A DNA stretch of 64,000 nt, from IMG/VR virus record IMGVR_UViG_3300033066_000276, positions 16,097 through 80,096 of that record; one strand, 5' to 3'. Below are positions 1,910 through 44,593 of the stretch, one piece after another (within the stretch, counting starts at the first letter, position 1; every line of letters starts with the position of its first letter). The DNA is from a virus (lineage: Duplodnaviria > Caudoviricetes). Made by a program: the position numbers and the translations under genes. Under the pieces are notes generated by a model, which saw only the letters and a program-made list of their open reading frames with translations, did not search any database and was not told the DNA's origin.

Positions 1910-1918
1910 GGAACCCTC

Positions 1919-24870: not shown

Positions 24871-27800
24871 TCTGTCACTCCAAATGCGCTCGGCGTTCTC
24901 ATCGCCAGCCTTTTGATTTCACGCTTGTTGAGTTTGCCGCCGCCAGAAGCAAGTTCAAGTAAGGCCGCAGCGATCTTCTTGTTCTGCTTCTCTTCAAGCC
25001 GCTTTTGGTAAGACGAGGTAGCGATACGACGCTGGCCTCGGCTGTCGCGTTCGTAGACACGATAGCGGTCAGTATCAAACTCACCGCGCGGCTTCTTCAT
25101 CTTGGCATAGGTACGGCCAAACGATTGCAACGCCGCATTCATCTCACGACGATCGGCTTCACTCAGATTGGCCTGCTCCATACCCGGTTGCTGTGGCATA
25201 AACTTTTCAAGCCGGGCCAGTTGCTTCGACACGTCTTTGCGAGTTTGCAAGTCATCGTCGAACTGATCCATAACCTGATCGAGATTCATACCACCGGCGG
25301 CAGCAATCATCCGCAATGGCACTGGCACCCCGTTCTGCGTCATGATCTGCAGGATGTTGAGGTAGGCTTCGTCCGCTTGCGGTTGCAGTTGCTTGTGCCA
25401 GTTGACCGTTGGGATCTGATACTCAGTGATATCCTCGATCTCATTCAGGTCGTGGCCCAAAGAACCATCGCACAACGCCATGTAGTCGCCGTTGCGATTC
25501 TTCATGATATAGGTGCCGCGCGAGCCCCAGATAGGCCGACGATACGGTGAGATGTATTCACCGCGACGACGCAGGCGAGCCCGCTCACTCTTACTCAGTG
25601 AACCATGCGCCTTGAAGCTACGGCCACCATCTTCGTTCTTGAAGTTGTTGGCAACCGCAATCGACGGGAACAGCTTATCGTAGAACAACTCCCGCGTCAC
25701 CATCTGACGATAGCTACGCAGTTGTTCCATGAACACCGACAGGGCGGTTTCTAGTGTATTGTAGCTGGCCTCACCTGAGAGGAAGGTTTCGTTGATGCCC
25801 AGACCCTTGAGCTTTGCCGCTGCAAGGTAATCGTAGACATCCGAATTATGAACGACAATACCATTGGCAACGAAGGAATTTTCTTCTCCCTTAGCCATTG
25901 TCAAATCGTAAGTACTTACGATCTTGCCCTTGGTTATTTCCTTTAACTCAGTGAAGAAGAATTTTCTCTCAAACAAGGCAATTACTTTAGCGTGTTCCGT
26001 GGGAGAAACCTGCTTTAGGATTGAAAGTTGCTGGTCGTATTCTCCATCGACATAATTGTCGTAGCTCCAAAAAGCTCGAAGTTCGCGATTGAAAATGTTG
26101 TAACCTTCAACCTCAATATCCTTTCCATCATCAGTTCTAAGGATTACTCCTACACGACGACCTACTTTCCGTCCGTTTAAGAACGCCCTAATACCGGCAG
26201 TAGGAATACCAGCCGTGTGTTGTGGCCATTGTGGTGTCGCTACTTCTTTGATCTTGTGGGTCAAAAATGGTTGGAGCTTGGAATTTAAGCTATGAGTGGC
26301 ACCACGATTGAACGTAAGAACGTTATTGTGGATATGACTCAAACATCCATGAGACGCCATCATTGTCTGCATCTGACGAAGGTTCTTCTTCGAGGATGAA
26401 GCAATACTAATGTTAGTCTCAGAGATAGTACCATCACCCTCGATGTAACCAGCCAAATAAGCCAACTGACATTCTTCGTTGGCTTGCAAAACTGTGTAAG
26501 GTACTTCTTTGTAGTACGAAGGAGATTTTTTCTTTCGATGGTTCTTCAGGCCAATATGAGTCCAAAACTTGGATAGTAAAGTGCTGCAATATCCAACATC
26601 ATAAAACTCCTTAGTAGAAGTCATACCGGCAGATTCAATACCTGGCGGTCGTGTTCCTCTTCGAGCTTCAATACCAAATTGTTCCAGCATGATAGTGGCA
26701 AAACGATCGGCAAGCTTCTTGTTCGAGTTGCCAAAATGGCTCTGCGTTTTGTCAAAGCTTCCTTCGGACACCATCAAGCCTAAGATGAAAGCCAAGTCCG
26801 TATTCATGTACTTTGGAAAGCGGAGTTCTTTTTCGTTACCATATTCGTTGGCTTCAAACGGAGGCAATTTATATTCAGATTGACGAGTCAACGAATCTGT
26901 AGTGGCACAAAGCAAGTCACCTAATTGGAGGTCCTTACCTTTCTTCCAGACTACTTCGTTATTTTCAAGCACCATAAAGCGGTGTTCTTTGGTAGCAGTT
27001 ATCGTCTGACCATTGGCTGTACGATATTTGAATACAGGTTTTTTGCCTGCATTGGTCCATTCCGCCACTTTGGCTGGACCTTTGCCACCTAGAATACGAA
27101 GAGGTTTGCTGGAATTGTTGATACGATCCTCTAACTCGTCAATGCGAAAGATACCTTCTTCTGTTGGAATAAGGGTATCACCAGCAAGACAGTGTTTCCA
27201 CAGATCATCCCCACGCCGGACTTCGTTAGTCAACACCCCTTGGCGTGTGACGACGACGGCTCCAGTCGGGTCGAGGTTAGCAGTAGCGAAGAGGTTAGCC
27301 CCCGCTTGCATTTCCTGATCGGTAGGTTCCCAGACTTCATCGCCCATCGTGATATGCAAAATCGCCCGTTGGCGGGCGTAGGCTTGCTCCATGGTGCCGC
27401 GCATCAGCGCTTTTTCCATGATCCACAACGGTATCAAACGACGAAACGCCGATGTTCCAATTGACGAGTACGAGAAGGTCTTGCGACCGATGTAAACTGT
27501 GCTGGCTGGATCAAGGGCGATACGATTGCCACCACCACGTCCACCACCGCCGCGATTTGAACCGCCAGTGGACGCACCTTGCACGGCTTGCTTGTAGAAC
27601 TCAGGTAGATTCTTCAACGCCTTCTTGGCGCGATCATCCTTTGAGTTGAATAGCTCGACCAGATTCTTCGGCACCTTCATATCGATGATAGGGTCCATCC
27701 CGTAGATGGGCGTATCAAGGAACTCAAGGTTATCTTGGTTGTGGGTGACGACGTTCGAGAAGATGCCGCGGCTCTTGTTGAACGAGAACGTGCCGACGAA

Positions 27801-28319
27801 AGCTCCATCGACAATGTAGTCAATCGACAATTGCGGGAACAGTGTCTTGAGTTTGAGGTTCTCAATCGACTTGACGAAAACCTTGAGCACCTCTTCATCG
27901 TTGACACCACTCAACGAGAAATCTGAGAACGGCAAGTTAGACATCAGGTCGGCAGCGGAGCCGGCAATGGTGTCGTGGTAGTACATATCTCGAGCCAGCT
28001 TACGGATAACCTGTGGCTTCGAGGTGACGATACCTTCAATGACGTCCGCTTCGTACTGGCCGACGATGGCAGAACCACCGAGTCCAGTCTTGCTCGAATT
28101 AACGTCAACCCCACCCGCCGCCGCAACTTCGGCCATGTACGGATCGGTGTATGCTTCCTCACGAGAGTTGGCAAGCACCTTCTGATCTGGCTTGCCGGTA
28201 ACAGCTACAGATGAACGTTCGCCCCCGCCGCCGTAGCCAAGCTGGGAGTTAAAAGTAACCAAGCGTTGTTTGCCTTGACGGTCTTTGTAAAGGCCGACTT
28301 CTGATGTACGTTTGAGCAT
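24867..28319 (-). CDS. Portal protein containing an intein
   Basis: Next to the terminase; IRKLARDMYYHDTIAGSAADLM, YIVDGAFVG, RQRAILHITMG, LGINETFLSGEASY are portal-like segments. Confidence 0.85.
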   Translation of the reverse strand: MLKRTSEVGLYKDRQGKQRLVTFNSQLGYGGGGERSSVAVTGKPDQKVLANSREEAYTDPYMAEVAAAGGVDVNSSKTGLGGSAIVGQYEADVIEGIVTSKPQVIRKLARDMYYHDTIAGSAADLMSNLPFSDFSLSGVNDEEVLKVFVKSIENLKLKTLFPQLSIDYIVDGAFVGTFSFNKSRGIFSNVVTHNQDNLEFLDTPIYGMDPIIDMKVPKNLVELFNSKDDRAKKALKNLPEFYKQAVQGASTGGSNRGGGGRGGGNRIALDPASTVYIGRKTFSYSSIGTSAFRRLIPLWIMEKALMRGTMEQAYARQRAILHITMGDEVWEPTDQEMQAGANLFATANLDPTGAVVVTRQGVLTNEVRRGDDLWKHCLAGDTLIPTEEGIFRIDELEDRINNSSKPLRILGGKGPAKVAEWTNAGKKPVFKYRTANGQTITATKEHRFMVLENNEVVWKKGKDLQLGDLLCATTDSLTRQSEYKLPPFEANEYGNEKELRFPKYMNTDLAFILGLMVSEGSFDKTQSHFGNSNKKLADRFATIMLEQFGIEARRGTRPPGIESAGMTSTKEFYDVGYCSTLLSKFWTHIGLKNHRKKKSPSYYKEVPYTVLQANEECQLAYLAGYIEGDGTISETNISIASSSKKNLRQMQTMMASHGCLSHIHNNVLTFNRGATHSLNSKLQPFLTHKIKEVATPQWPQHTAGIPTAGIRAFLNGRKVGRRVGVILRTDDGKDIEVEGYNIFNRELRAFWSYDNYVDGEYDQQLSILKQVSPTEHAKVIALFERKFFFTELKEITKGKIVSTYDLTMAKGEENSFVANGIVVHNSDVYDYLAAAKLKGLGINETFLSGEASYNTLETALSVFMEQLRSYRQMVTRELFYDKLFPSIAVANNFKNEDGGRSFKAHGSLSKSERARLRRRGEYISPYRRPIWGSRGTYIMKNRNGDYMALCDGSLGHDLNEIEDITEYQIPTVNWHKQLQPQADEAYLNILQIMTQNGVPVPLRMIAAAGGMNLDQVMDQFDDDLQTRKDVSKQLARLEKFMPQQPGMEQANLSEADRREMNAALQSFGRTYAKMKKPRGEFDTDRYRVYERDSRGQRRIATSSYQKRLEEKQNKKIAAALLELASGGGKLNKREIKRLAMRTPSAFGVTE
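25845..27191 (-). mobile_element. Intein (449 aa) with LAGLIDADG homing endonuclease, in portal
   Basis: Begins CLAGDTLIPT, ends SFVANGIVVHN, followed by Ser; LAFILGLMVSEG and YLAGYIEGDG motifs. Confidence 0.95.
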
Positions 28320-28615: not shown

Positions 28616-31600
28616 TTACAGCGTCTTACTAGCGCCAATACCAACAGCGGAACGACCTCCGCCAGTAGCACTGCCAGACACCATTACACCCATCCCGGAA
28701 ACACTTTGAACCCCTGCCGCTCCACCAATGAAGCCAAAGCTGCCAAAGCGTTTGGCTGTCTCGCCAGCGAACTTGGGAGCAAGGTCTTTATCGCGTAGGA
28801 AGGAGTGGGCTAGCACTACGGCTCGGAAGATATCGTCGGTAGTTGACTCACCCTTCTCAACCGAAGTCTCAAAGTCACGCACCGTCATGATCTGAGCGAT
28901 CAAGTGCGCCACCGGCTTGCCTTCAAAGCCTTTTGGATAGCTCTCGTCAATCAAGTCGAGAATCTCAGGGATCTTGACTTCGCAGCGAGGGAAGCTGATA
29001 GTGGCGTCGTGAATGTCTTCACGCAGCATTTCAAAGTCTTCGTACTTGACCGTGTACTCGCGGGTGTCCACTCGACGATCAGTCTCAATGTCCATTAGGA
29101 TCTTCTTCGACTGCCATCTATCTGTGACCGCCATGATGACGTTGAACTCATCGATCAACGGTAGCAGGATTCGGTCATACACGTCTCTAAAGTTGATGCG
29201 ATGGTCCTTCTGTGGGATCACTTCGCCAATAGCGTCAATCACCGGCGACAGAGCCTTGTCATTGTGCGCTACACAGAAGGCAAAGCTGTTTCCCGTTAGG
29301 ATATAGTCTTCCAACACGAAGGAGTGAGTGTCAGGAATCTCCGCACAGTAAACCTTCTCACGGCGTTTGGTTTTATTTATTGACTCTACTGTCCACTTGG
29401 TTCTAGTGTTGAAATCCTTAGTGTTGTTGACGAAGCGTTCTCTATGTTGTGGGTTAAGCAACAACTCAGCCGAGAATGTCTCCCGCAGGAAGAAGAGCTT
29501 ATAGCACTTGAACATCTTGCCATTGAAAGGATTGACTGTTTCTTGACAAGTAATCGGACTGGTGGCTACACCAAGCTTATTACAGACGTCTCTCAGCTTG
29601 CGGAGATTTTTCTTGGTGATGCTGTTTATCATCACCTTGCCATCCTTATCAACACAGCCATCGGTAGCAATGTATCCCGCGATGAATCCTCGCAAATACG
29701 AGTCATCATATCTTGGTGATGGTACACTTTTGTATTCAATTGGAAGGTGAGTAATGACTATCTCATTCTTTGGATATTCACCACGCTCTTGCCAATACTT
29801 TCCTCTTGCACGATACCTCTCAAAGTAAGGCAACAAGAAATCAATTTTATGGTAGCAGAGATTAGCTACACTCCAGTGACGTTCCTGGCCCTTACCCCAT
29901 GGACCTAAGTGACCGTCACCCATAACCACACCATGTTCCACTCCACGCGGGTCAATGGACCAATCGCTATTAACAGGCGGCAAAACACTATCGATCTTGT
30001 AGCCCGTCTGTAACGTTTCGGTAGTAAGCTCCTTACGGGTACGATTCTTATCGAAGGCAAACCATCTATGGTTTCCAGTTACACGGATTACCTTCTTAGC
30101 TCCATTGAAGCTAAGCTCTAATTCGTACAGTTCGGCTTTGCCGTAGCATTTGAACTCAGTCTTAACCCATTTTGATCCTTCGGTAAGGACTTCTACCGAC
30201 TTACCAATAAGACGATCGATACGTTTTGTCCCGTTACGGGTAATAACCTTTGTCTCACCAGCGAAACAATTGTGAGTTTCACCAGCGTCGAAGGTCAGGA
30301 TGTGATTGGTTTTGGTGCCTGGGGAAATGATCTTGGCCTTACCAGACGTCATCACCGCGTTGGCTCGCGTTTGCACCAACACTTGCTTGATCTTGAGCAG
30401 GTTCTCACGATGCGGGTCGAGGCACTTCTTAACGAAATTGATATCCCCGATGAAGCCAGCAGACGACAGCGGTGGCTTGGCACCGTAATCTCGCATGGCC
30501 TTTTCGTAGTTTTCCGCGAACTCTTCCGCCAGCACCTTGCGGCTAACCTTGGGGTTCATTTCCCAAGTAGCATAGCGGAAGCCGTACACCATACGGCTCT
30601 TCTTCGATTGGTTGTAGAGCTTGGTGATTTTATCGTAGCGACTCGACGGCGATGAGATGTTGAGGAACATCGGGGCCGGAATAGAGTTCATGCCCTTCTT
30701 CCGCAGTGTGGCATGAGCCGCACGCAGGGTAAGGAAGGACCGTCGCATAGCTTTGTGGACTTCGTCGGCGTTTAGTTTCACGGCTCCATCGTTACCAGTG
30801 AACCAGCCGATTTCGTCGATACCTCCAAGGTAACGAGTTAGACCACGCAGGGTACGCATGTTCGGGCCTGACACCGATCCAATCAGGTTCCTGTGGCGAT
30901 ACCAGTAGTACGTGTCCTTGAGCGAATAGTATTCGATACCGGTTTTCTCATGCCAGTAATCGAGCATCTTATGGTAGTTCTTATACCACGGACCTTCCGT
31001 CAACGCTTGGTAAATTGGATCCCAAATCGTCTTACGAGCTTGATCTTGTGTGGTCGCCAGGAAGGTTGCGCCAAGCTGCTGATTCTTCAACAGCCCGAAG
31101 AACTGTGAAGGGTTGGGCAACTTGAGGAAGAGGTGATTGGTGTAGGATGTGACCATGCCGGTGACGGCAGACTTACCACCACGCTGTCCAGCGAGGCCCG
31201 CCATCTCATAGTGATCGTTCAGATCACCTTCGGCCACCATGTCTGACTTGCGACCATCGCACTGTGGACAGATGCCGTTCTCAAGCAAGACAACGTGTTC
31301 AAGGTAGGCGGGAACTTTGGTCTTGACCGACACGCTACCGTCGAGCCATTTCATGTCCGTGCAGTACGGGCAATACTCTGACATTAGGTTCACGGCGATC
31401 TCGAACTGACGGCCAAACGGCGTCATGTTCTGATACATCTTCGAGCAAGTGAACTCGTAGAAGTTTTTAGCCTGTGGGAAGTCACCGTCGTCGATGCTCA
31501 TGTCTGGCATCGAACCGGCGTTCTTGACTATATCGAGAACGTACTTCTCAACGTCGAAGTTTATGTCATCGTCGCTGGTCTTTGGTTCCCACGGCTGAAT

Positions 31601-31810
31601 GGTATCTTCTTTGTCTTGCGCCGACTCGGCCATCATACGATCAAGATCGAAGCGCTCACCATCGGCTTCTCGAAAGCGTGAGCACAGGTAGCCGCTAGAC
31701 TTACTCTTGTCAGTGCAAATCGGCCACAGGGCACAGGTTAGGCAATTTTCCTCAAGACTTGGACGAAGACTTCTTCCTAGCTTTAATCGGATACGACGGC
31801 GTTTTTCCAT
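28616..31810 (-). CDS. Terminase large subunit containing an intein
   Basis: Walker A AGQRGGKS, Walker B GGIDEIGWF, RNase H-like nuclease ILTFDAGETHN|SFAF and C-terminal DDIFRA; N-terminal Cys clusters; exact start uncertain. Confidence 0.92.
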   Translation of the reverse strand: MEKRRRIRLKLGRSLRPSLEENCLTCALWPICTDKSKSSGYLCSRFREADGERFDLDRMMAESAQDKEDTIQPWEPKTSDDDINFDVEKYVLDIVKNAGSMPDMSIDDGDFPQAKNFYEFTCSKMYQNMTPFGRQFEIAVNLMSEYCPYCTDMKWLDGSVSVKTKVPAYLEHVVLLENGICPQCDGRKSDMVAEGDLNDHYEMAGLAGQRGGKSAVTGMVTSYTNHLFLKLPNPSQFFGLLKNQQLGATFLATTQDQARKTIWDPIYQALTEGPWYKNYHKMLDYWHEKTGIEYYSLKDTYYWYRHRNLIGSVSGPNMRTLRGLTRYLGGIDEIGWFTGNDGAVKLNADEVHKAMRRSFLTLRAAHATLRKKGMNSIPAPMFLNISSPSSRYDKITKLYNQSKKSRMVYGFRYATWEMNPKVSRKVLAEEFAENYEKAMRDYGAKPPLSSAGFIGDINFVKKCLDPHRENLLKIKQVLVQTRANAVMTSGKAKIISPGTKTNHILTFDAGETHNCFAGETKVITRNGTKRIDRLIGKSVEVLTEGSKWVKTEFKCYGKAELYELELSFNGAKKVIRVTGNHRWFAFDKNRTRKELTTETLQTGYKIDSVLPPVNSDWSIDPRGVEHGVVMGDGHLGPWGKGQERHWSVANLCYHKIDFLLPYFERYRARGKYWQERGEYPKNEIVITHLPIEYKSVPSPRYDDSYLRGFIAGYIATDGCVDKDGKVMINSITKKNLRKLRDVCNKLGVATSPITCQETVNPFNGKMFKCYKLFFLRETFSAELLLNPQHRERFVNNTKDFNTRTKWTVESINKTKRREKVYCAEIPDTHSFVLEDYILTGNSFAFCVAHNDKALSPVIDAIGEVIPQKDHRINFRDVYDRILLPLIDEFNVIMAVTDRWQSKKILMDIETDRRVDTREYTVKYEDFEMLREDIHDATISFPRCEVKIPEILDLIDESYPKGFEGKPVAHLIAQIMTVRDFETSVEKGESTTDDIFRAVVLAHSFLRDKDLAPKFAGETAKRFGSFGFIGGAAGVQSVSGMGVMVSGSATGGGRSAVGIGASKTL
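29288..30268 (-). mobile_element. Intein (327 aa) with LAGLIDADG endonuclease, in terminase nuclease domain
   Basis: Begins CFAGETKVIT, ends SFVLEDYILTGN, followed by Ser; HGVVMGDG and FIAGYIATDG motifs. Confidence 0.95.
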
Positions 31811-32390
31811 TAGGGCTGCTCTGCTGCATTAACCGGGCTACCATAGACGCCAGTGCATCCTTGGCTTGCGCCGGTGTGAATTCTGTAAGCATAGCTAGGT
31901 TGCGAATCCTAGCGCGTGCTTTAGGCCCTAAATTGGTGTCTTTGAGCAGCATGTCGAGGACTTCAATACGGGCAATTCGACGCCCCGTAGCCTCTACTTC
32001 GGCCATTTCGAGCCCTATTGGGATATTCATTTGGGTGGCAAAGACCTTGTTTGCCTGGGCTACACCCTCCATTTGAGCGTATAGACGAATAGTTAGATCA
32101 AGCGCCCGATCTCTAGTCGTGGCGACTGTGGTTTCCCAGATGCGGAATAGCGGCCCTTGGTCAACGTTGTCTTCAAGGTTGGCAAAATACTTCGCCAACC
32201 GCTTGCGTTCTCGCAGCAGACTCTTTTGTAGTTTAGTCTTCGAGGTAGTCGTCGAGGCTTTCGTCTTGTTCTTCTTTCGGTCGCTTCTTGGACCCACCCT
32301 TACCCCCTTTTCCTTTCTTTCCTCCTTCACTTCCTCCGTTACCTTTGACATAGCTTTCAAATCCTTTGAGTTCTTCCTCGGTCGGGTCAC
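31752..32390 (-). CDS. Hypothetical helical protein upstream of terminase (small-terminase candidate); start uncertain
   Basis: 212 aa ORF overlapping the DnaB tail and the terminase start. Confidence 0.45.
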   Translation of the reverse strand: MTRPRKNSKDLKAMSKVTEEVKEERKEKGVRVGPRSDRKKNKTKASTTTSKTKLQKSLLRERKRLAKYFANLEDNVDQGPLFRIWETTVATTRDRALDLTIRLYAQMEGVAQANKVFATQMNIPIGLEMAEVEATGRRIARIEVLDMLLKDTNLGPKARARIRNLAMLTEFTPAQAKDALASMVARLMQQSSPNGKTPSYPIKARKKSSSKS

Positions 32391-34710
32391 GCACGGTCAT
32401 GGTGCCGTAGTCTTCAGCGAGGTAGAAATTGTAGTCTGGTTGGTTGCGGTTTTTCTGTTGCTGCACGTAGATCATTCCAGCTTCCTTGCTGGCCTTGTCT
32501 CGCACCCAAGTCCACATATTTGAATTATGGACAATCATCCCATTGGCGACAAAACTATCAGTTCCTGGTACTGTCAAGTCATACACAGTCTGCTTACCCA
32601 CATAAGTAACTGATCTTACCGACTGTAGATGGTAGTCGGGACGTTTACGCCATTTGGTCGTGTGCTGGTATTGTTTATTTGGATGGATGCATCGGATATA
32701 CTTATTCCATAGCTCTAAATTGGCAATGCCTGCTACTTCAAATGACCAGCCACTACTCCAGGTTTTCTCAACCTTCTTCTCCTCACCATTTTGCTTAGCG
32801 TAGATTCCTAATCGTTGTAGCAATAAGCGAAAACGATGGCTCATCTCTTTTGATGTAGTAGAGAAAGCTTTTCTGTCTATCCCACTACCGCCATCACAAT
32901 CATATAGAGCACCAAGGCACTCACCTACTATATTTCGCGGTGATTGCATGACTACATCAGGGATATATTTGCTGTTGGCTTTGCCTGTTAAACCAGGGAT
33001 TGAGGCAAGTATCTCACTTACTTGCTTTTTGTAGACAACAACCCCACCCTTAACAGGAGAAGGTGTTATGCCAAACACTTTTTCAAAGCATCGAACGTAG
33101 TCTGCAATTAGTATTGGATTATGGTTGGCGAAATGTACTCGCCAACGTTTTTGCTCGTTACAGATATGACCGTCACCAATCAAATATCCAATCAACCGTG
33201 CAAACTCCTTGTTCATTCGCTTTGGAACTTTGACTCGTTGAGATCTATCAAATTTGTGTCTGTATTCTACTTGAAGTCTCATCTGACTACGAGGCCAAAT
33301 GTACTGTTGATTGAAGATAATATGGTCAGTAGGCTGTAGCTTCTTAAGCTCCCTCCACTCTACACCCTTTATCCCCATCACTGCAAAGCGGTGGTTTCCC
33401 GTTGCTGTAATCTCTACGCCGCGCTCTGTTACCAGCTTGTAGACTGGTTTCTTTCCGTTATTGTGGGCACGAAGAGCTATTCCAACGCCATTTTGTGACG
33501 TTACCATTTCTTGAATGTGTCGGTTGCCAGGTTCGTCCATAGCAACCAAATCTTGAATTGGGATAACGCCATTGGGTGTATCAATCAACGTGTTTCCAAT
33601 AACGCAAGCGTGTTCCTTCATGCCCTTTGAATAGCGAATGATCCCTTCTTCGCTAAGCTGCGCTAGAACCACAACAATGCAGCGGTTGGCTTCGGCGAAG
33701 CGTTTGCAGAAACGAGCAATATCCGACAGCTTGCGCCATTGATCGTCTGTACTTGCACCCTTCAAGAGGTTGATGTAGTCGATGATAATGACAGGGTAGC
33801 TGAACGGCTTGAGTCGGAACAGCGTTTCCTCGATGGTCAAGTCCTCATCGGGGATCATGTGGGTTTCGACTGAACCACGCTTCTTCAGGTCGGCCGTGTA
33901 TTCCTTCCACGCACGAGTGAGCTTCTTCACCTCCTTACGAGTGAGGTCAGCCGGTCGCAACATACGTTCGAGCGGAATCTTAGTCAGATACGACATACGC
34001 CGCATCATCATTTCCGTCTCGTTCATTTCAAGGCCGACGATGCAGGTCCGGTAGCCTTGCTTGGCCCAATTGTGCGCCAGCACTTGTGCAAGAGTTGACT
34101 TACCGCCGCCGGTGTTGGCTGCAATTAGAAACAAACCGCCCAGCGGTATCCCGGCTGAGCGGCGGTCGAAACTATCGAATCCTGTAGGGATAAAGCGAGT
34201 AGCTGTACCCTTTAGAAAGTCCCTGAGTATCTTCTTGGTGTTGTTATTGTCACCGTAATTGAACATCGTCTCACGGTTGCCGGTTGAGTTGGCTTCCATG
34301 AGTTTCACGCTGATCTTCGCCAGCATGTCATCGATGTCTACGGTTTCACCTTTGAGCGCTTCAACGCCTTCACGGTGCATCTCATGCACGAGACGCAAGC
34401 GGCGGAATTCATTAAGCTGGCGGGCAATGGTTGTGGCTCGCTTCTTGCTGCGAATCCTAACCTTCTGCACCTTACGCAGCTTCGCTCTTACCCGTTCGGG
34501 GAGCTTGGTATCATGGCAGATAGTATCGTAGTCGGGGCGAGCACCTGTGTTCCGCATGATCGTAGTGATGCGACGGAAGACAGCTTTGCCAGTTGATGTC
34601 TGAAAGTGGTTTTCGTTACATAGACCTAGCAGTACGTTGGCACTGTGTTCGTGTTCGCCAACCATCGCGCGAACAGCTTTAAGCTCCAAAGAAATGTCGA
34701 ACAGTTTCAC
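32233..34710 (-). CDS. dnaB: Replicative DnaB-like helicase containing an intein
   Basis: Walker A AANTGGGKST, VGLEMN, IIIDYINLL, VVLAQLS, RYSKGMKEHA|SN, KNRN arginine finger; acidic C-terminal tail. Confidence 0.92.
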   Translation of the reverse strand: MKLFDISLELKAVRAMVGEHEHSANVLLGLCNENHFQTSTGKAVFRRITTIMRNTGARPDYDTICHDTKLPERVRAKLRKVQKVRIRSKKRATTIARQLNEFRRLRLVHEMHREGVEALKGETVDIDDMLAKISVKLMEANSTGNRETMFNYGDNNNTKKILRDFLKGTATRFIPTGFDSFDRRSAGIPLGGLFLIAANTGGGKSTLAQVLAHNWAKQGYRTCIVGLEMNETEMMMRRMSYLTKIPLERMLRPADLTRKEVKKLTRAWKEYTADLKKRGSVETHMIPDEDLTIEETLFRLKPFSYPVIIIDYINLLKGASTDDQWRKLSDIARFCKRFAEANRCIVVVLAQLSEEGIIRYSKGMKEHACVIGNTLIDTPNGVIPIQDLVAMDEPGNRHIQEMVTSQNGVGIALRAHNNGKKPVYKLVTERGVEITATGNHRFAVMGIKGVEWRELKKLQPTDHIIFNQQYIWPRSQMRLQVEYRHKFDRSQRVKVPKRMNKEFARLIGYLIGDGHICNEQKRWRVHFANHNPILIADYVRCFEKVFGITPSPVKGGVVVYKKQVSEILASIPGLTGKANSKYIPDVVMQSPRNIVGECLGALYDCDGGSGIDRKAFSTTSKEMSHRFRLLLQRLGIYAKQNGEEKKVEKTWSSGWSFEVAGIANLELWNKYIRCIHPNKQYQHTTKWRKRPDYHLQSVRSVTYVGKQTVYDLTVPGTDSFVANGMIVHNSNMWTWVRDKASKEAGMIYVQQQKNRNQPDYNFYLAEDYGTMTVRDPTEEELKGFESYVKGNGGSEGGKKGKGGKGGSKKRPKEEQDESLDDYLED
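32524..33606 (-). mobile_element. Intein (361 aa) with LAGLIDADG endonuclease, in DnaB
   Basis: Begins CVIGNTLIDT, ends SFVANGMIVHN, followed by Ser; LIGYLIGDG and LGALYDCDG motifs. Confidence 0.95.
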
Positions 34711-36925: not shown

Positions 36926-37256
36926 TGGCGGCGAGGTCTTGTTTGTGCCTATGGACGTCGTATCCAAGGACGGTTGCAATCCAGTTGCCATTTCCATTCC
37001 CCACAGGTTCAATCAGTTTCATGTCTTGTAGCTTGACCGCAAGCGGTGTCGGGCCAACTTTGCCTTCACAGATACGAGCTAACGTTTCCAGTGCTGACGG
37101 AAAGGTAGTGAGTTGTGCATAGAGATAGTCAACTCGTTCTTTCCTTAACCGCTTCAAGAGTTTGCTGAACTTGTTGGCCCCTGGTAGATCGTTGTCAACG
37201 GCATCGATTACCTCCATGGCCAATTCTCGATACACGACGTAAGAGAAATCAGCCAT
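36891..37256 (-). CDS. Hypothetical protein
   Basis: Likely start MADFSY. Confidence 0.5.
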   Translation of the reverse strand: MADFSYVVYRELAMEVIDAVDNDLPGANKFSKLLKRLRKERVDYLYAQLTTFPSALETLARICEGKVGPTPLAVKLQDMKLIEPVGNGNGNWIATVLGYDVHRHKQDLAASARLDSKKEGG

Positions 37257-37599
37257 CGATAACTCCAATCACGTCGCTTTCTTTCATGCACAAATAAGGC
37301 TTGTTCTCACCGGGGAAGTGAATCTCATTGCCTGACCAGCGGCCATAGAGCACAACTTCACCCACTTCCAAGTCGGTAGGGCAACGATAGCCACCCTTGA
37401 GTCTCTTGCCTGGACCGACGGCTACTACCTCGCCCTTCTTCGGTGTGTCTTCAGGGTCATAGTTTTCAGGGATGATAAGACTACCAATCTTACCACTGTG
37501 AGAATCGAGTTGCCGAATGAGAACGTTGTCCTCCATCGGCACAAAATCACGAACGTCCAATTGCTTGCTCCTGTACTTGACTTGCAGTGTCAGCCTCAT
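37249..37599 (-). CDS. groES: GroES-like co-chaperonin
   Basis: FVPMEDNVLI, GSLIIPE mobile loop, GEVVAVGPGK, VGEVVLYGRWSGNEI, MKESDVIGVI. Confidence 0.93.
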   Translation of the reverse strand: MRLTLQVKYRSKQLDVRDFVPMEDNVLIRQLDSHSGKIGSLIIPENYDPEDTPKKGEVVAVGPGKRLKGGYRCPTDLEVGEVVLYGRWSGNEIHFPGENKPYLCMKESDVIGVIDG

Positions 37600-38318: not shown

Positions 38319-38693
38319 TCATTTTCTCCAATCTCGGAAGCATTGCATCAAGAACCTGATGCGGTCATTCGCCATACCCCGTCCGTAGTCACAGTCTAGG
38401 TCAAGGTCATCCTCGCCCATACACTGTTCGGTTGGTAAGTTCACGCTTTGATGGTAGGCAAAGAAGTGTAGGCTTTTGGCTAGCTCGCGCGTGCGCCCGC
38501 CGGTTAGAACCCACCCTGATCCATCGGGGATCAAGTTGAACACATACTCAACCTGTGCCCTTAGCTTTACCCGTTCATCTTCGGGCACGTTGCGCCAAGA
38601 GGTGCGGCCTGTAAAGTTGATGAAGGCAGCCATCTGGTAGTGGCCGTGCAGTCTCTCAGCTAGGTGTTCGATCAGTGCTGGATCCAGCTTCAT
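38319..38693 (-). CDS. Hypothetical protein
   Basis: Likely start MKLDPAL after GGAG. Confidence 0.5.
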   Translation of the reverse strand: MKLDPALIEHLAERLHGHYQMAAFINFTGRTSWRNVPEDERVKLRAQVEYVFNLIPDGSGWVLTGGRTRELAKSLHFFAYHQSVNLPTEQCMGEDDLDLDCDYGRGMANDRIRFLMQCFRDWRK

Positions 38694-38874
38694 TGTTGCT
38701 CTCCGGGTATGGTAGGCCAAAGTGTTCGTAGAGCTTTTTGTGTAGCCAGGATCGGTGTTCTTCATCGCCGTGTGCGATTGCCGTGAACAGTTCTTCGATT
38801 TCGTTTTGTAGTGCCGATGGGTACTTCCCATAGAAGGGTTGCACCGACCCCTTCATGTTAGGTTTTGTCGCCAT
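38656..38874 (-). CDS. Small phage hypothetical protein
   Basis: Start MATKPN after GAGGAG; AIAHGDEEHRSWL motif. Confidence 0.55.
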   Translation of the reverse strand: MATKPNMKGSVQPFYGKYPSALQNEIEELFTAIAHGDEEHRSWLHKKLYEHFGLPYPESNNEAGSSTDRTPS

Positions 38875-39091
38875 CGTTAAACTCCTCGAAGCTGATGCCA
38901 TCCTTGGTGATGATTGAACGAAGTCGGATCATGGTAACCGGCTTGGGCTCAATAGCGTAGATGTTGATGGCGTTGGTGGCGTAGTTAGCGACCACTCTAG
39001 CCTTACGAAACCGGCCTTCTAGTCGGTATTGAATACGCAGACGAACGACCGTGCAACCGAGCACCAAGGTACGCCAGAGGTGATACCACAT
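38858..39091 (-). CDS. 77-aa protein resembling the tail-sheath C-terminal domain
   Basis: TGATG-coupled start; PVTMIRLRSIITKDG-ISFEE vs sheath PVEKIRLRTIITREGDISFFE, 14 identities in 21 columns. Confidence 0.7.
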   Translation of the reverse strand: MWYHLWRTLVLGCTVVRLRIQYRLEGRFRKARVVANYATNAINIYAIEPKPVTMIRLRSIITKDGISFEEFNDGDKT

Positions 39092-39477
39092 CAGTCGTCG
39101 TCCTTGAACTTAAAGAACCAACCGATGATCCGCTGCGTAGCCAGGATATGGTTAGGGCTGTGAACGTGGCAGTGTGCTTGTAGCCACGGACTCAACGGGC
39201 GAGGCGAAACCAAGGACACATACTTACCAGCTTTGAAAGCGAGAACCACTTCCATAGCTGAGCCGTAGCTTGGCTTCCAACAGTTCGCCACTATTGCATC
39301 GCATTGTGCGATAGCGTGCAGATCACGTTGCACTACATTCTTGCCCTTCCAATCGGTAGGGTCGATGAAAGTAACACCTTGGTTGACGAACAGATTCTTG
39401 AGTTCGTTTCGCCAGTCGTGCGCCTCGCCATGCGTACAGTTTGCGATGGGACCGCATAGATAGATGCTAGGTGTCAT
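39091..39477 (-). CDS. Nucleoside 2-deoxyribosyltransferase / dNMP N-glycosidase (NDT/DNPH1-like)
   Basis: IYLCGPI, DWR, FIDP, VQRDLHAIAQCDAIVA, SYGSAMEV (catalytic Glu position). Confidence 0.85.
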   Translation of the reverse strand: MTPSIYLCGPIANCTHGEAHDWRNELKNLFVNQGVTFIDPTDWKGKNVVQRDLHAIAQCDAIVANCWKPSYGSAMEVVLAFKAGKYVSLVSPRPLSPWLQAHCHVHSPNHILATQRIIGWFFKFKDDD

Positions 39478-39926
39478 ACCTTCTTCTCTCCATAAGGTAG
39501 CTGACTTAGCGGATAGTCCTCTACTTCATACCAGTTGCCGCTTCCCTTCTCAATTGTAAGCACTAGCTCCTTGCAACGGCTCGTGGCCTCGTGCTCGTGT
39601 AGCCAAATAGAGTCGATAGATTGAGCCGACACACCGTCAACTTCATAGCCACGCAAGACAACGTGGACATTTTCGTGCTTACGAAGCAGTCCTGGCATAT
39701 GCAACACTAATGGAATCAGCTCTTGTCGATCAGGTAGGCGGGCGTAGGCCGCACCCTCAGGAGCCAACAGCACTTCGGCGATACGGATCATGTTGTTGGC
39801 GCCATCATTGGTATAGATACCTTTCTTGTCGGTATCATATACCAACTCACCTACACCAATACCTTGGATGTGTTCGAGCTTACCTTGCTCAACGAACTCA
39901 CCGCGCTTGATAAGTATCTGCATCAC
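39474..39926 (-). CDS. Two-domain hypothetical protein; N-terminus resembles a tail-fibre N-terminal (Mtd_N/hyaluronidase-N-like) module
   Basis: QILIKRG...GELVYDTDKKGIYTNDG vs family pattern iqlrRGt...GE.gy.tDt...kiGDG. Confidence 0.4.
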   Translation of the reverse strand: MMQILIKRGEFVEQGKLEHIQGIGVGELVYDTDKKGIYTNDGANNMIRIAEVLLAPEGAAYARLPDRQELIPLVLHMPGLLRKHENVHVVLRGYEVDGVSAQSIDSIWLHEHEATSRCKELVLTIEKGSGNWYEVEDYPLSQLPYGEKKV

Positions 39927-40309
39927 ATTTGCTCCGGCGGGATGGTGAATGGTTTTTTGTCATCACGACGACGAGGATTAGACACCGCTGGCATGTCAGG
40001 GTAGTTTTCAAGCTGCGAGTCCATGATAGTATCCTCAATCTTGAAACGCCAAACGTCGAAGCCCTCAGCCTTCAATTCTTCAACACAACCACGCACGCGG
40101 CGTTGAATAGCATCGAGGTTCTTGTCGCGAGTGGTCAGGAAGCTATCGTACTTTGAACGAGTAGGTGTATCTACGTCCCGTTTTTTCATCAACAGGTCAG
40201 CCACCCGAAAATCATACTTGAGAGCAATAAGACGCAAGGTTATTTGACGATTATCCAACACCGGCTCAAGCGTGACATGGGCTTCGTAGTACAGTTTAGA
40301 ATCCATCAT
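39923..40309 (-). CDS. Phage hypothetical protein
   Basis: YYEAHVT...SFLTTR...GFDVWRFKIED. Confidence 0.55.
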   Translation of the reverse strand: MMDSKLYYEAHVTLEPVLDNRQITLRLIALKYDFRVADLLMKKRDVDTPTRSKYDSFLTTRDKNLDAIQRRVRGCVEELKAEGFDVWRFKIEDTIMDSQLENYPDMPAVSNPRRRDDKKPFTIPPEQM

Positions 40310-40683
40310 TCGGCGTCCTTCCACGATATCTTGAGCACGTAGTAATAGCAGATGGCCGGAGCAGCACTATCGCCATGATTGACTTCGATCTCTTCAATCG
40401 AGGACGCATAGTTCTGTTCTTGCAACTCGTTAGCTATGTGGTTTAACGCTTCCCAACTCTCATCGTCTTTACTGACATTGTGCTCTACACTGTAGTAACG
40501 GTTCTCTGATGCTGACGCAATCGCCGTGGCAATGAGTGGCTTGAGTTCGGAGATGATGCGACTGATACGTTGACGCCTCTGAGCAGCGATGGATTCTTCT
40601 TCCTTCTGTCTAGCTGCGAAAGCAACCCTCTCTGCGGCTTTGGTTTCAGCCCGAACGTGTGTAGCTTTTTTGAAGTAGCTCAT
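40306..40683 (-). CDS. Hypothetical protein
   Basis: Likely start MSYFKK at 40683. Confidence 0.5.
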   Translation of the reverse strand: MSYFKKATHVRAETKAAERVAFAARQKEEESIAAQRRQRISRIISELKPLIATAIASASENRYYSVEHNVSKDDESWEALNHIANELQEQNYASSIEEIEVNHGDSAAPAICYYYVLKISWKDAE

Positions 40684-40684
40684 G

Positions 40685-40993
40685 CTACGTGTCCTTTGAT
40701 ATTTGTCGTCGCGTGCGAAAGAACCCATCGTGTTCAGGATACCTGCGGTGAAAACGACGAGCGTAGAAGGCAGTGAAATTGTTGTTCAGCTTAAACTCTT
40801 TATCCTTATCGTAGGTTGGTTGATCCGTTTCCCAACGTACTCTATGGCAGATAGCATCAGATGAGTAATGCTCAAAGCCTTGAGCAATACGATCTTTGGT
40901 GAACCGCACGAACAGCTTCCATACTTCTGGGTGTTCCTTGTTGAAGCGTTTGAACTGCTCCAACAATTGCTGACGGCGGGTAGGCTTCTTCAT
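40685..40993 (-). CDS. Conserved phage hypothetical protein
   Basis: FKRFNKEHPEVW...RVRWET...FKLNNNFTAFYAR...FFRTR pattern seen in other phage proteins of unknown function. Confidence 0.6.
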   Translation of the reverse strand: MKKPTRRQQLLEQFKRFNKEHPEVWKLFVRFTKDRIAQGFEHYSSDAICHRVRWETDQPTYDKDKEFKLNNNFTAFYARRFHRRYPEHDGFFRTRRQISKDT

Positions 40994-40994
40994 T

Positions 40995-41183
40995 TTAGAA
41001 CTTAGCCTTTTCGATATTCTGTTTGATCTGCCCGATAGCCTTGTCTTTGCTTATTTCATTACCATCTTCATCTACGAACTTTATCTGAGCGCTACGGCGT
41101 TCACCTCTTAGCCTAGCCAACTCGGCTGCTTCTTCTTGGGTAATTTCCTTACCATCACCATCTATGTACTTAACCATTGTCAA
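40995..41183 (-). CDS. Small hypothetical protein with internal duplication
   Basis: VKYIDGDGKEITQEEA repeated as IKFVDEDGNEISKDKA. Confidence 0.55.
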   Translation of the reverse strand: MTMVKYIDGDGKEITQEEAAELARLRGERRSAQIKFVDEDGNEISKDKAIGQIKQNIEKAKF

Positions 41184-42832
41184 AACCTCCGTGGCACTTG
41201 CCGTGTGTGTGCTTCTGATTGGTGCTTACGATGATTTACCACTTTTCCTCCAAACCTTGAGGGCTTAGACGAGGCCAAAGCATACATCCGTTCACGGTTT
41301 TCTTTGCTCATCTTGTAGCGTGGTTGGTTGCCATACTTGTTGCCTTCGAGGTAGGGAGAGATTGCAGTCCAACACAGCTTACGCAGACAACCTATGCTCT
41401 GTGGCATGTCATCGACGTAGATCTTGACCTTGGGTTGGCGCTTGCCTTTGGCTGGCGTGCAAGGACGACAGGCCAATTGATAGAACATCGGTCCATTCGA
41501 GGTCGGGATTACTTGATGCAGCACAGTGGGGCGCTTCATGTCCACGCCTTGCTTCATCATCGATGAGATCGCAACGACGACTAGGTGTTTGCCCTTTTCA
41601 AAGTCTCGCAGCACCTTCTTTTGATCGGAGTCAGCGTTGTAGGCCACCGCCATCTGATCGGGCCATTCTTCACCGCGTTTGCGATTGTTAATTCGAGCCT
41701 GATTGTTTATCGTCTGGATGAGTAGGTTCTGTTGCTTGCGATACTCCACTGGAATGATGACGCCACCATGCCCCTCACGCAGATCCTTGAATACGTCCTT
41801 GACGATTCTCTTGGTGCGTCCTGGATCACTACCGATGAATGATAAGAAGTAGGTCCAGTGGTTGATCTTCTTACCCTCACCGGGGTTGACGCCGGTTTCA
41901 ACGATCTCTAATTCAGGCAGCAGAGCCGCGGTGTGTGAACGCACAGTCACCGGTCCAAGCAAAGCGTAGCCGATGAATTGACGATTGTCCTTGCGGTCGG
42001 GTGTGGCCGTAAGACCAAGCCGGTAGCGACTATCGATCTCGTTGATAAATTTGGCAAACGCCGACGCAGAACCCATGTGGGCTTCGTCAACGATCAACAG
42101 ACCAAACTTGCCGGTGATCGCTTCCTTCAATCGTCCAGGGCCATACTTGCTGATGAACTTCTGGTAGTTGACCAGCACTACGTCAGCCTTGGTGTCAAGG
42201 TCTTCAACCGTACTCACCATCTTGACTACGGTTCGACCACGCCGTTTGAGATCATTCATGTTGGTGAAGTCTCGATAGGTGCGGTAGAACTGACGCAGCA
42301 GTTGCTTTTTGTGGGCCACAATCAGAGTACGGGTGCCAAGTTGCACTGAGATGAAGCAACCGAGAACAGTCTTACCCGTCCTCGGTGCCGCCTCGATGAT
42401 GCCATGCTTAACCTTGAGCCATTCGTCTGTCAGCTTGACTTGGTTAGCAGTCTTAATGTCGTCGATAGTTTGCCCGTGATAGAGCTCACGCGTGAACTTT
42501 ATCTTGTTGCGGAATGGAGGATTGGCACGCTTGTCTATGGCTAGGTGAAAGTCAAAGCCGATCTTCTTGGCTGTAACTCGATCTCCTGACGGGACAGCGA
42601 TGTAGTCTTCACCCTTGAAATTGCCCTTACGCCACAGCTTGATCTCACCCTGGAAGGCAGGGCATTGGTCACAAAGTTCGTTATGACGATCAGGCAAATT
42701 TTTACATCTTCCACAAGCACTTTCGTCATAGATAGAACGTTGGTAGTGTTGTTTAACCTCCCGAAGATTAACTTGATCCCTCCGTAGGTATAACTTGTCT
42801 TTGATTATGAACTTTGGTGAAGCCATGACCAT
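41180..42832 (-). CDS. Superfamily 2 DNA helicase (UvsW-like)
   Basis: EAAPRTGKT, LIVDEAH, GLTATPDRKD, QGVDMKR, YQLACR. Confidence 0.88.
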   Translation of the reverse strand: MVMASPKFIIKDKLYLRRDQVNLREVKQHYQRSIYDESACGRCKNLPDRHNELCDQCPAFQGEIKLWRKGNFKGEDYIAVPSGDRVTAKKIGFDFHLAIDKRANPPFRNKIKFTRELYHGQTIDDIKTANQVKLTDEWLKVKHGIIEAAPRTGKTVLGCFISVQLGTRTLIVAHKKQLLRQFYRTYRDFTNMNDLKRRGRTVVKMVSTVEDLDTKADVVLVNYQKFISKYGPGRLKEAITGKFGLLIVDEAHMGSASAFAKFINEIDSRYRLGLTATPDRKDNRQFIGYALLGPVTVRSHTAALLPELEIVETGVNPGEGKKINHWTYFLSFIGSDPGRTKRIVKDVFKDLREGHGGVIIPVEYRKQQNLLIQTINNQARINNRKRGEEWPDQMAVAYNADSDQKKVLRDFEKGKHLVVVAISSMMKQGVDMKRPTVLHQVIPTSNGPMFYQLACRPCTPAKGKRQPKVKIYVDDMPQSIGCLRKLCWTAISPYLEGNKYGNQPRYKMSKENRERMYALASSKPSRFGGKVVNHRKHQSEAHTRQVPRRF

Positions 42833-43371
42833 GCCCTTCCAGAGATGATATTTTGTATCAAAGAAGGAGACACATTAAATCTATCACTCATCCCCTTAAC
42901 ACCAAATTTACTATGTCCTCGCTTGAACTTGCGTTTGATGAACAAGACATCATCTTTGCATAATTTAGCTTTTGGATGTCGAGTACCTTGTAGTGTCGTC
43001 CCGTGTTTTGAAGCATCTGCGCCATTTTCAACGTAGGTTCCATATTCTATGTTGGTCGCAACATTGTTTGTTCCCACGCCATCAAGATGACGAACTACAA
43101 GACCATTCGGCCTTTTGCCTTTGAAAGCTCTAGCCACTAGGACATGCACATATTTGGTATATTTTACAGCTTCTCTGCACAAAGAAACAGTACGATACGG
43201 TCCACTTCGTGCTTGTTTCAATACACGTCCAGGTACTACGTAGGACTTGAGTGGAACACCATTTCTCATAGCATTAACGGTTGTTCCCAGTGATCTTACC
43301 CTCCCCAAGTTAGAGACTTCATAATTGGGGTATCCCTTGACCTTCTTCCATATCTCTTTGGGTGCTGGCAT
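42805..43371 (-). CDS. NUMOD4-HNH homing endonuclease
   Basis: EIWKKVKGYPNYEVSNLGRVRS (NUMOD4), YVHVLVA, VRHLDGVGTNNVATNIEYGTYVEN; likely ATG at 43371. Confidence 0.9.
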   Translation of the reverse strand: MPAPKEIWKKVKGYPNYEVSNLGRVRSLGTTVNAMRNGVPLKSYVVPGRVLKQARSGPYRTVSLCREAVKYTKYVHVLVARAFKGKRPNGLVVRHLDGVGTNNVATNIEYGTYVENGADASKHGTTLQGTRHPKAKLCKDDVLFIKRKFKRGHSKFGVKGMSDRFNVSPSLIQNIISGRAWSWLHQSS

Positions 43372-43375
43372 TTGG

Positions 43376-44593
43376 TTAATATGTCTCTGGATCACGACCC
43401 GAAGGTGGGGAAGCTGGTGGTGGTAGCACCGCTTCTGCTGCTGCGGTTGGAACAACAGGCGGCGGTGTTGGTGGTATTGGAGTTACTGCAATCACCGCTT
43501 CCTTGACTATGGGCTCCTTGTTGACTGCCAGCACTTGCATCAAGTCGGCAATCATCTTGATCTCAGCTTCGTCAAACACTCGCGGTCGGGTAACCGAAGG
43601 ATTGACCTGAGCCTTGTTCAAGAACAGCAGTCGCGCCAAGTCACTAGCACTGTTTACCTTAAGCGCCGTGGGGAACAATTCGTCGGTAAACGGGGTTGGA
43701 CGAACGATTGGCGTGGCTCCAGCCAACACTGCTTCCATGACCTCGTACTGCATCGTATCCCGATCGTTCCACCCCAACACCCATTGGCAGCGAGATAGAA
43801 AGCTCAAGTAGTCATGTTTGTTCTTGACAACCCGGAACATCAGGTTCTGTGGCAGCTTGGTTGTATCGGGTAGATTGCGTCGGCTATTGAGCATACTGCC
43901 TGGAACGACAGCCATAAACCTAACTAGGTCTAGGCCACGACTAAGACGATAGCTAGCGTTGTCACTGGTGACGCCAGCCAGACTATTGTACTCACGCGCA
44001 GCATCAATCAACACTTGCAGACCGTTGTCATCGCAAACCCGTTGCGGCATGACCAAGATCTTTTCCTTCGTCGTCGCCGTGAACGCCTTGTCAACGCGAC
44101 ATGGATAGCCGACTACAGCCACCTTGTCTCCACCGATCATGTGGTGCTGCATCAGTGCGTCTTTCAACGCCTGAGTAGCAACGTAGATACGATCAGCCCC
44201 TTCCATGATGTTGTCTTCAAAGCGACCGACAACGTTGCGATTGCTCTTATCCCACATCCGTGTGGTGCTGGTGACGATACCGGCGTAAGGAATCTCAGGA
44301 TTGTCCATCACAATCGACGGCACTTCTGGAGACAACAGGTCCATGAAGAACAGCATGTCGAACTGGTGATGCTTCTTTTCTTCGGCCATCTGACGAAGAA
44401 CGTTGAGCCGGTTTTCGGTTTGATAGGATGGATCGTAGAAACTCTCCACGTTGGTAATCGCGGTGAAGTTGGTGCCGCCAATCATCACCACTTCCGCCAT
44501 GCGCGACAGGTGGTAGACGAAGTCATCGACCAGTGTTTGTTCGGGACGAAACCAAGCTAGGGCGGGACGAACCAATCCAATAGTGTACTGCAT
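43376..44593 (-). CDS. GT-B (GT4-like) glycosyltransferase
   Basis: ADRIYVATQALKDAL, ILVMPQR, KHDYLSFLSRCQWV...DTMQYEVMEAVLAGATPIV (D/E-x7-E donor-binding motif); Pro-rich tail. Confidence 0.8.
   Translation of the reverse strand: MQYTIGLVRPALAWFRPEQTLVDDFVYHLSRMAEVVMIGGTNFTAITNVESFYDPSYQTENRLNVLRQMAEEKKHHQFDMLFFMDLLSPEVPSIVMDNPEIPYAGIVTSTTRMWDKSNRNVVGRFEDNIMEGADRIYVATQALKDALMQHHMIGGDKVAVVGYPCRVDKAFTATTKEKILVMPQRVCDDNGLQVLIDAAREYNSLAGVTSDNASYRLSRGLDLVRFMAVVPGSMLNSRRNLPDTTKLPQNLMFRVVKNKHDYLSFLSRCQWVLGWNDRDTMQYEVMEAVLAGATPIVRPTPFTDELFPTALKVNSASDLARLLFLNKAQVNPSVTRPRVFDEAEIKMIADLMQVLAVNKEPIVKEAVIAVTPIPPTPPPVVPTAAAEAVLPPPASPPSGRDPETY

Follow-up and report, generated by a model that had tools for sequence, protein, structure and literature searches.

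A 77-amino-acid gene of an uncultured wastewater phage, homologous to the C-terminal end of the tail sheath and located outside the tail genes

An uncultured wastewater phage carries a 77-amino-acid gene (P0001, hereafter the mini-gene) whose product is homologous, over residues 25-73, to the last 60 residues of the tail sheath. Sequence comparisons established this homology over approximately 50 residues, not only over the last 30, and identified the mini-gene as a real gene under purifying selection. The mini-gene lies approximately 33-35 kb from the sheath gene, inside a co-directional operon of replication and nucleotide-metabolism genes, between the helicase and DnaB genes. Our tentative proposal, which we regard as possible rather than probable, is that the mini-protein docks on sheath subunits through the handshake strands and modulates their polymerization.

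Results and Discussion

Genomic context of the mini-gene

The window, that is, the whole stretch of 64,000 nt that was analyzed, corresponds to bases 16097-80096 of an 80,096-nt IMG/VR record (completeness approximately 36%, CheckV), and every sizeable gene in it is carried by the minus strand (Table 1). In the direction of transcription, the helicase gene is followed by a series of small overlapping genes, the mini-gene among them, and, further on, by the gene of the co-chaperonin Cpn10. Past Cpn10, the order is YpsA-like, DnaB, large terminase, portal, prohead protease, and major capsid protein, followed by four unassigned genes, the tail sheath, and three tube paralogs. The earlier note had described the location as an accessory region: the region is indeed mosaic between strains (see below), but the mini-gene is embedded in the co-directional operon mentioned above. 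Scans for sigma-70-type promoters and for terminators gave scores no higher than those of shuffled sequences.

The 77-amino-acid ORF, which had been described from the letters as coupled to its upstream neighbor by TGATG, was confirmed. Its ATG overlaps the TGA of a nucleoside 2-deoxyribosyltransferase-like (Ndt-like) gene, and this stop/start junction was present in all three members of the family described below, as was a Shine-Dalgarno-like motif (AAGGA, GAGG, or AGG) 6-9 nt 5′ of the ATG. The Ndt-like gene matched two Pfam families (PF15891 and PF05014) at approximately 1e-6, slightly below the curated cut-offs, and had the same position in contigs L003 and L006. For the small conserved gene downstream, the start was set at the ATG 1 nt past the mini-gene stop; family searches with this gene gave zero matches. 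Its AIAHGDEEHRxWL motif also occurred in a distant AT-rich phage lineage (JGI metagenomes; L010 and L011) with different neighbors: the JGI scan made with the gene returned two short AT-rich contigs of a distant phage, in which another gene lies upstream.

Table 1. Positions of the mini-gene, its parts, its neighbors, and the tail sheath gene in the 64,000-nt window.
Feature	Position	Strand	Basis or remark
Mini-gene P0001, 77 aa	38858..39091 (stop codon included)	-	ORF listing; syntenic homologs; dN/dS
P0001 codons 25-73, sheath-homologous segment with 10-residue loop deletion	38873..39019	-	hhalign, MAFFT, PDB matches, tblastn of P0049
P0001 codons 1-24, basic hydrophobic N-terminal segment	39020..39091	-	dN/dS 0.018; sheath similarity at shuffle level
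Ndt-like gene, upstream, stop/start-overlapped with P0001	39091..39477	-	Pfam PF15891 and PF05014
Small conserved gene (55-66 aa, AIAHGDEEHRxWL motif), downstream of P0001	38656..38856	-	Alignment and synteny
Helicase	41180-42832	-	First in transcription order, ahead of the small-gene run
Co-chaperonin Cpn10	37249-37599	-	1.3 kb downstream of P0001, same operon
Tail sheath, 793 aa	3185..5566	-	Pfam PF04984 Phage_sheath_1 (1.3e-18) and PF17482 Phage_sheath_1C
Sheath codons 734-793, segment copied by P0001	3188..3367	-	hhalign alignment

The sheath of the phage itself scored 26.7 bits against PF17482, for which the cut-off is 26.9. Its closest annotated relatives in tblastn were the sheaths of Rhizobium, Burkholderia, Pseudomonas, and Ralstonia jumbo phages (28-35% identity), and sheaths of T4-like phages were matched as well; the closest other sheath (P0004) was encoded on a 207-kb contig. 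A canonical GPW_gp25 gene (PF04965, 33.4 bits, above the cut-off) was found outside the window (G000:C1:10253-10525), where it adjoins a baseplate-type gene. Immediately past the sheath gene, three tandem tail-tube paralogs (173, 243, and 225 aa; 1232-3171) each matched phrog_45.

Homology to the sheath C-terminus

Because an all-versus-all reading of a 64-kb window could yield such a match by chance, several tests that did not depend on the original pair of sequences were made. In the pair itself, BLASTP aligned mini-protein residues 42-70 with sheath residues 761-790 (15/30 identical, pairwise E = 3e-6), both segments being terminal in their proteins; the 14 identities in the last 21 columns counted in the earlier note were thus about right. 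A six-frame HMMER search of the entire 80-kb record gave E = 8e-4 for the same match. When an HMM of 45 sheath C-termini was used from which the phage's own sheath had been left out, P0001 and its closest homolog (P0002) scored 11.5 and 14.0 bits, and the best of 2000 shuffles scored 8.9. Mean Smith-Waterman scores against approximately 50 sheath C-termini were 38-50 per family member and 22 ± 1.4 for shuffles.

The alignment of the three-member family with 27 full-length sheaths (hhalign, 94.7%, E = 6e-8) placed ORF residues 25-73 on sheath residues 734-793 and crossed a 10-residue loop deletion in the mini-protein. MAFFT, applied to a mixed set, independently yielded the same register. A looser match upstream of the terminal one (EGRFRKARVVA versus QEALKLFLVVC), which had been suggested by eye, was borne out by this longer alignment. 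A PDB-wide profile search (E ≤ 10) returned four entries only, all of them T4-type gp18 sheaths, matched at approximately residues 625-654 of 656-659. The third and most divergent family member (P0049), searched by tblastn against 50,697 phage genomes, matched 286 records, and nearly all matches listed were annotated tail-sheath genes. The best of them showed 66.7% identity over residues 47-76 (database-wide E = 1e-4), and some alignments spanned residues 29-75; over approximately 30 residues, P0049 was 55-67% identical to the sheath ends of distant T4-like phages. Searches of the phage collection with P0001 (blastn and tblastn) gave zero matches, sheath genes being reached only with P0049, which is more consensus-like, and hmmscan of P0001 at E ≤ 1 gave no match to PF17482.

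The most conserved positions of the sheath C-terminus were kept in the mini-protein (N40 = N749, I55 = I774, F68 = F788). Equivalents of these sheath-specific residues and the TKDG.SFEE end were found in 3/3 members, including P0049, which is only 46-48% identical to the others. The mini-protein covers the last 60 sheath residues only, and the full C-terminal domain (approximately 100 residues, with its sheet-packing helices) is not represented.

At the DNA level, the mini-gene and the phage's own sheath end were 61% identical over 90 nt, and the longest identical run was 9 nt. The sheath copy is therefore old, and recent gene conversion from the phage's own sheath was rejected. On the question of which sheath is closest, raised in the earlier note, P0001 and P0002 matched the sheath of their own clade best (Smith-Waterman; P0004, 70; P0003, 66). 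P0049 was closer to canonical T4-type sheath ends (13/29 identical with T4 gp18, counted by hand) than to the sheath end of the window phage. A protein of Acinetobacter phage vB_AbaM_PhT2 was rejected as a relative (tblastn, E = 2; hhalign, 37%; sheath profiles, nothing). This protein (vBAbaMPhT2_021; L012, 2276-2785) is a 169-aa hypothetical protein encoded in the early region of a T4-like phage, and its faint likeness to the C-terminal half of the mini-protein is probably due to chance.

A family of three proteins under purifying selection

Among 5.8 billion protein clusters, a word-based search detected a single homolog of the mini-protein, P0002 (80 aa, 83% identity). P0049 (83 aa, 46-48% identity, E = 6e-18) came to light when 1.84 billion representatives were searched exhaustively with an HMM; another protein from this search (P0050) was discarded as a spurious repeat protein. 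A profile word search returned the same three proteins (P0001, P0002, and P0049), scans of IMG/VR with the ORF and with the helicase gave no further member or a single distant locus, and family searches with P0001 gave zero matches. Both P0002 and P0049 are encoded on Logan contigs of related phages (runs SRR29476928 and SRR17410015, respectively), at a syntenic position flanked by the Ndt-like gene on the upstream side and by a 55-aa gene and Cpn10 on the downstream side.

P0001 and P0002 differed by 23 synonymous and 13 non-synonymous codon differences, which corresponds to a dN/dS of 0.13 at a dS of 0.9 (NG86). By segment, dN/dS was 0.018 in codons 1-24, 0 in codons 25-41, and 0.21 in codons 42-73; codons 1-45 showed 15 synonymous changes versus 1 non-synonymous change. 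The small size of the mini-gene, the lack of matches in family searches, and the abundance of homing endonucleases and recombination in the surrounding region would suit a non-functional recombination scar or a mis-called ORF. This explanation is nevertheless exceedingly improbable given the dN/dS at this dS and given that three diverged phages have preserved the reading frame, the start context, and the syntenic position. The scar, named in the earlier note as a case that would undo its reading, is excluded by the dN/dS and by the two syntenic homologs.

Parts of the mini-protein and structure models

The N-terminal 24 residues are basic and hydrophobic and are the most constrained part of the protein, the sheath-like part being less constrained; the pI of the N-terminal half is 11.3. 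The similarity of codons 1-24 to the sheath N-arm and to the remaining sheath was no greater than that of shuffles. A "mini-sheath" with its middle deleted, in which the N-terminus would be a copy of the sheath N-arm, was rejected on these scores.

The AF2 model of the mini-protein (2 rows) contained six strands at a pLDDT of 65, and the N-terminal segment was predicted, at low confidence, as a beta-hairpin. At the same low confidence, predicted strands at residues 41-48, 53-62, and 65-70 coincided with the acceptor, acceptor, and donor strands, respectively. Adding sheath rows gave a poorer model (pLDDT 52). A Foldseek search of the low-pLDDT model against the PDB returned nothing at E ≤ 0.001, and the ESM Atlas gave no usable match. 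From position in published sheath structures, we infer that residues 42-48, 53-62, and 65-70 correspond to two acceptor strands and the C-terminal donor strand, and that residues 30-36 correspond to the preceding core strand.

Variation between strains

The helicase was 92-93% identical in both related contigs, and the genes around the mini-gene showed 46-69% identity in one of them and 48-67% in the other. In one of these comparisons, no gene was more divergent than the mini-gene (46%); in the other, it ranked among the best conserved (83%). Small neighbor genes were gained and lost between strains, and the position and order of the mini-gene were kept in three phage contigs. The genes at 39474-39926 and 40685-40993 had homologs in L006 and none in L003.

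In wastewater runs registered as RNA libraries (n = 4), 65-84% of the sampled words of the region were present. The dominant strains in the four runs departed from the window at approximately 38580-43180, where only low-depth contigs matched. This block, which contains the mini-gene, the Ndt-like gene, several small genes, and the helicase, is, to judge from these contigs, a strain-variable cassette in an otherwise conserved genome. One 600-nt contig (depth 897) joined position 38838 to position 39152 through 67 other letters, which is too short for the 234-nt gene; the Ndt-like gene was retained. Because this wastewater contig seems to lack the mini-gene, a close strain probably exists without it, and the gene is probably accessory; the evidence is this one assembled contig. 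In the Logan contigs of the RNA libraries, depth was uniform across structural and non-structural genes alike. Because the libraries may contain DNA, the contigs are not evidence of transcription, and the low cover of 38.7-42.7 kb in the RNA-library runs reflects strain divergence, not expression.

Comparison with sheath ends, initiators, and terminators

Myophage tails, tailocins, eCIS, and the T6SS all have sheaths that polymerize by strand exchange. Two strands of the sheath inner domain (domain I) accept the N-arm and the C-arm of two subunits of the next ring, and the resulting four-stranded handshake sheet maintains the integrity of the sheath in both the uncontracted and the contracted state (PMC13450770, PMC10457771). 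The last three strands of TssC are the acceptor beta11, the acceptor beta12, and the donor beta13 (PMC5807055). At the two sheath ends, the same sheet is completed by small virion proteins, the sheath initiator and the tail terminator (PMC13450770). Full-length T4 gp18 forms polysheath unaided, and a fragment without residues 511-659 does not polymerize (PMC3004832, PMC6088184).

The mini-protein resembles the T4-type sheath C-terminus (gp18 domain IV, approximately residues 600-654; the end of PF17482) over approximately 50 homologous residues, in the same order and likewise at the protein end. The elements shared are one core strand, an NN turn, two acceptor strands, and a C-terminal donor strand. 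Unlike the T4-type C-terminus, the mini-protein is approximately half a domain, without the helices, the N-arm, and the outer domains and with the 10-residue loop deleted; it also has a new 24-residue N-terminus, scores below the Pfam model, and is encoded approximately 33 kb from the sheath gene. Because the rest of the sheath (N-arm, helices, and outer domains) is missing, the mini-protein cannot build a sheath.

Like the gp25-like initiators (T4 gp25, TssE, and Afp9; PF04965), the mini-protein is small, has a sheath-like hairpin, and could potentially join the handshake sheet. A gp25-like initiator works like a sheath subunit without polymerizing (PMC13450770). Unlike gp25, the mini-gene is located outside the baseplate module, and its product also keeps the donor C-terminal strand. 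P0001 had no Pfam match to PF04965, and hhalign against the phage's own gp25-like protein gave a probability of 0.6%. With a canonical gp25 gene in the same genome and these results, the mini-protein is not the standard gp25-like initiator that the earlier note had considered as the alternative to its reading.

The terminators phi92 gp129 and T4 gp15 are similar to the mini-protein in that it ends in a sheath-type donor strand; in terminators, the last sheath ring owes its complete four-stranded sheet to a C-terminal beta element (PMC13450770). Unlike terminators, the mini-protein is much smaller, is encoded outside the neck/tail gene block, and is seemingly dispensable in one strain; terminator genes are expected with the neck, sheath, and tube genes, and the mini-gene is found between the helicase and DnaB. 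Donor-strand complementation by PapD/FimC, the chaperones of chaperone-usher pili, may serve as an analogy of mechanism only: there, a subunit that would otherwise polymerize by strand exchange has its strand slot occupied by a protein that does not polymerize. The two cases share neither fold nor system nor ancestry. In principle, the mini-protein would act much as the initiator and the terminator do; it belongs to neither of these families and is a partial, diverged homolog of the sheath C-terminal domain.

Possible functions of the mini-protein

In the proposed mechanism, the 3′ portion of a T4-type tail-sheath gene would have given rise to the mini-gene, which would then have been maintained as an independent accessory gene. 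Its product would dock on a sheath-type handshake surface by beta-strand addition, either by giving its C-terminal strand to the hairpin of a subunit or by taking the N- and C-arms of subunits on its own hairpin. Without further interfaces, it would form a non-propagating cap that would restrict or time sheath polymerization, for instance by preventing subunits from assembling into polysheath, or would terminate a growing sheath. The basic N-terminal segment of 24 residues would either shield the hydrophobic face, as the helix bundle does in the sheath, or provide a second contact.

Several observations favor docking. The Cpn10 gene is located 1.3 kb downstream in the operon, the initiator and the terminator provide a precedent for small proteins at the handshake sheet, and the self-polymerization of gp18 suggests a possible need for control. 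Others speak against docking: the mini-gene is separated from the tail genes by approximately 33 kb and is surrounded by genes of replication and nucleotide metabolism, and its sheath-like half is less constrained than its N-terminus (dN/dS of 0.21 versus 0.018). An essential role in assembly is argued against because a close strain seems to lack the mini-gene. Simple co-evolution with a cognate sheath would not fit either, because P0049 is closer to canonical T4-type sheath ends; the sheath contigs that were recovered came from samples other than those of the P0002 and P0049 phages. To our knowledge, the small proteins that plug into the handshake sheet are virion parts only, namely, the initiator and the terminator, and we know of no chaperone of this kind for T4. 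In the literature searched, no account of free-standing sheath-handshake genes outside tail modules was found. P0001 may act as a cap, a chaperone, a poison, or a decoy.

The fold may have been exapted for a function unrelated to sheaths, the beta-sheet scaffold being kept and the basic N-terminal half being active, for example, in nucleic-acid or enzyme binding linked to the Ndt-like gene. The low dN/dS of the N-terminal 41 codons (0-0.02, versus 0.21 for the sheath-like end), the high pI of the N-terminal half, and the constant translational coupling to the Ndt-like gene are in agreement with exaptation. It is rather unlikely, however, given that the sheath-specific conserved positions and the TKDG.SFEE end were kept in all three members and that the contig without the mini-gene still has the Ndt-like gene. 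The mini-protein could also be a minor virion protein, an extra handshake adaptor at one sheath end (neck or baseplate) encoded outside the tail module. At each end of the sheath, one such protein, the initiator or the terminator, completes the handshake sheet (PMC13450770), no terminator was nameable among the four unassigned genes between the capsid and sheath genes, and expression timing is not indicated by strand since all window genes are co-directional. We consider such an adaptor quite unlikely: a canonical gp25-like gene is present, the mini-gene lies between the helicase and DnaB, outside the tail block, and is apparently absent from a close strain, and its family comprises three sequences in 5.8 billion protein clusters, whereas core tail parts are widespread.

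The remaining alternatives concern interactions with the host or with competitors. Host systems that sense virion proteins are known, for instance CapRel with the capsid, Avs with the portal and the terminase, and DSR2 with the tube. A counter-defense decoy or sponge would present the sheath C-terminal surface to a host sensor that recognizes the sheath and would either occupy the sensor without activating it or titrate it. The mosaic, strain-variable region, the possible presence or absence of the gene by strain, and the neighboring Ndt-like and YpsA/SLOG-type nucleotide-processing genes are what a decoy might predict. Yet the literature searched yielded no defense system known to sense the sheath protein, a faithful copy of the trigger would be expected to activate the sensor and not to block it, and neither P0001 nor its immediate neighbors matched an anti-defense family; on balance, a decoy is unlikely. 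The "virion-part decoy strategy" of the earlier note leans on a companion capsid-like fragment (52680-53093) that is weakly similar to the major capsid protein (7581-8690): the BLASTP match (14/47, pairwise E = 7e-4) was far weaker than in the case of the sheath and is unconvincing alone. Fragments of polymer subunits that are incompetent for assembly often act as poisons, and the mini-protein might thus be a dominant-negative cap against foreign contractile machines, that is, co-infecting myophages, host tailocins, or the T6SS. Its accessory, variable location and its homology to a broadly conserved polymerization element (P0049 with the distant T4-like sheath ends, 55-67%) are compatible with a poison. 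Nonetheless, this role appears very unlikely: P0001 and P0002 match the sheath of their own clade best, so that the phage's own tail would be expected to be poisoned too, the likeness to TssC or pyocin-type sheaths is no more than that general to the family, and no precedent was found in the literature.

Returning to docking on the handshake sheet, a wider conjecture, to which we give little credence at present, is that large myophages repeatedly make free-standing, non-structural mini-proteins from the handshake element. These would act as strand-exchange caps that control sheath polymerization, sabotage that of competitors, or blind a host sensor, and P0001 would be their minimal form (two acceptor strands and a donor). 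Strand-exchange caps, if true, would be a so far undescribed way to act on sheath polymerization, and a conserved, non-structural, apparently dispensable gene that copies the handshake strands would offer a natural point of control over sheath assembly. If the partner is not the sheath, the mini-gene would still cleanly exemplify how part of a virion gene can be recruited to become a new gene.

Mobile genes and inserts in the window

An HNH/NUMOD4 homing-endonuclease gene (42805-43455) was 99.5% identical to the L003 copy, the flanking genes being 78-92% identical, and the endonuclease at the same site in L006 was just 42% identical. These identities suggest that a mobile endonuclease has recently moved horizontally or been replaced. 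The genes of the large terminase (28616-31810, 1064 aa), DnaB (32233-34710, 825 aa), and the portal (24867-28319, 1150 aa) are apparently interrupted by intein-like inserts. The terminase homolog in L003 showed weak Intein_splicing and LAGLIDADG matches, and the L003 DnaB is just 465 aa long. Residues 368-444 of DnaB matched the terminase PHROG, and phrog_9666 was matched by both DnaB and the portal.
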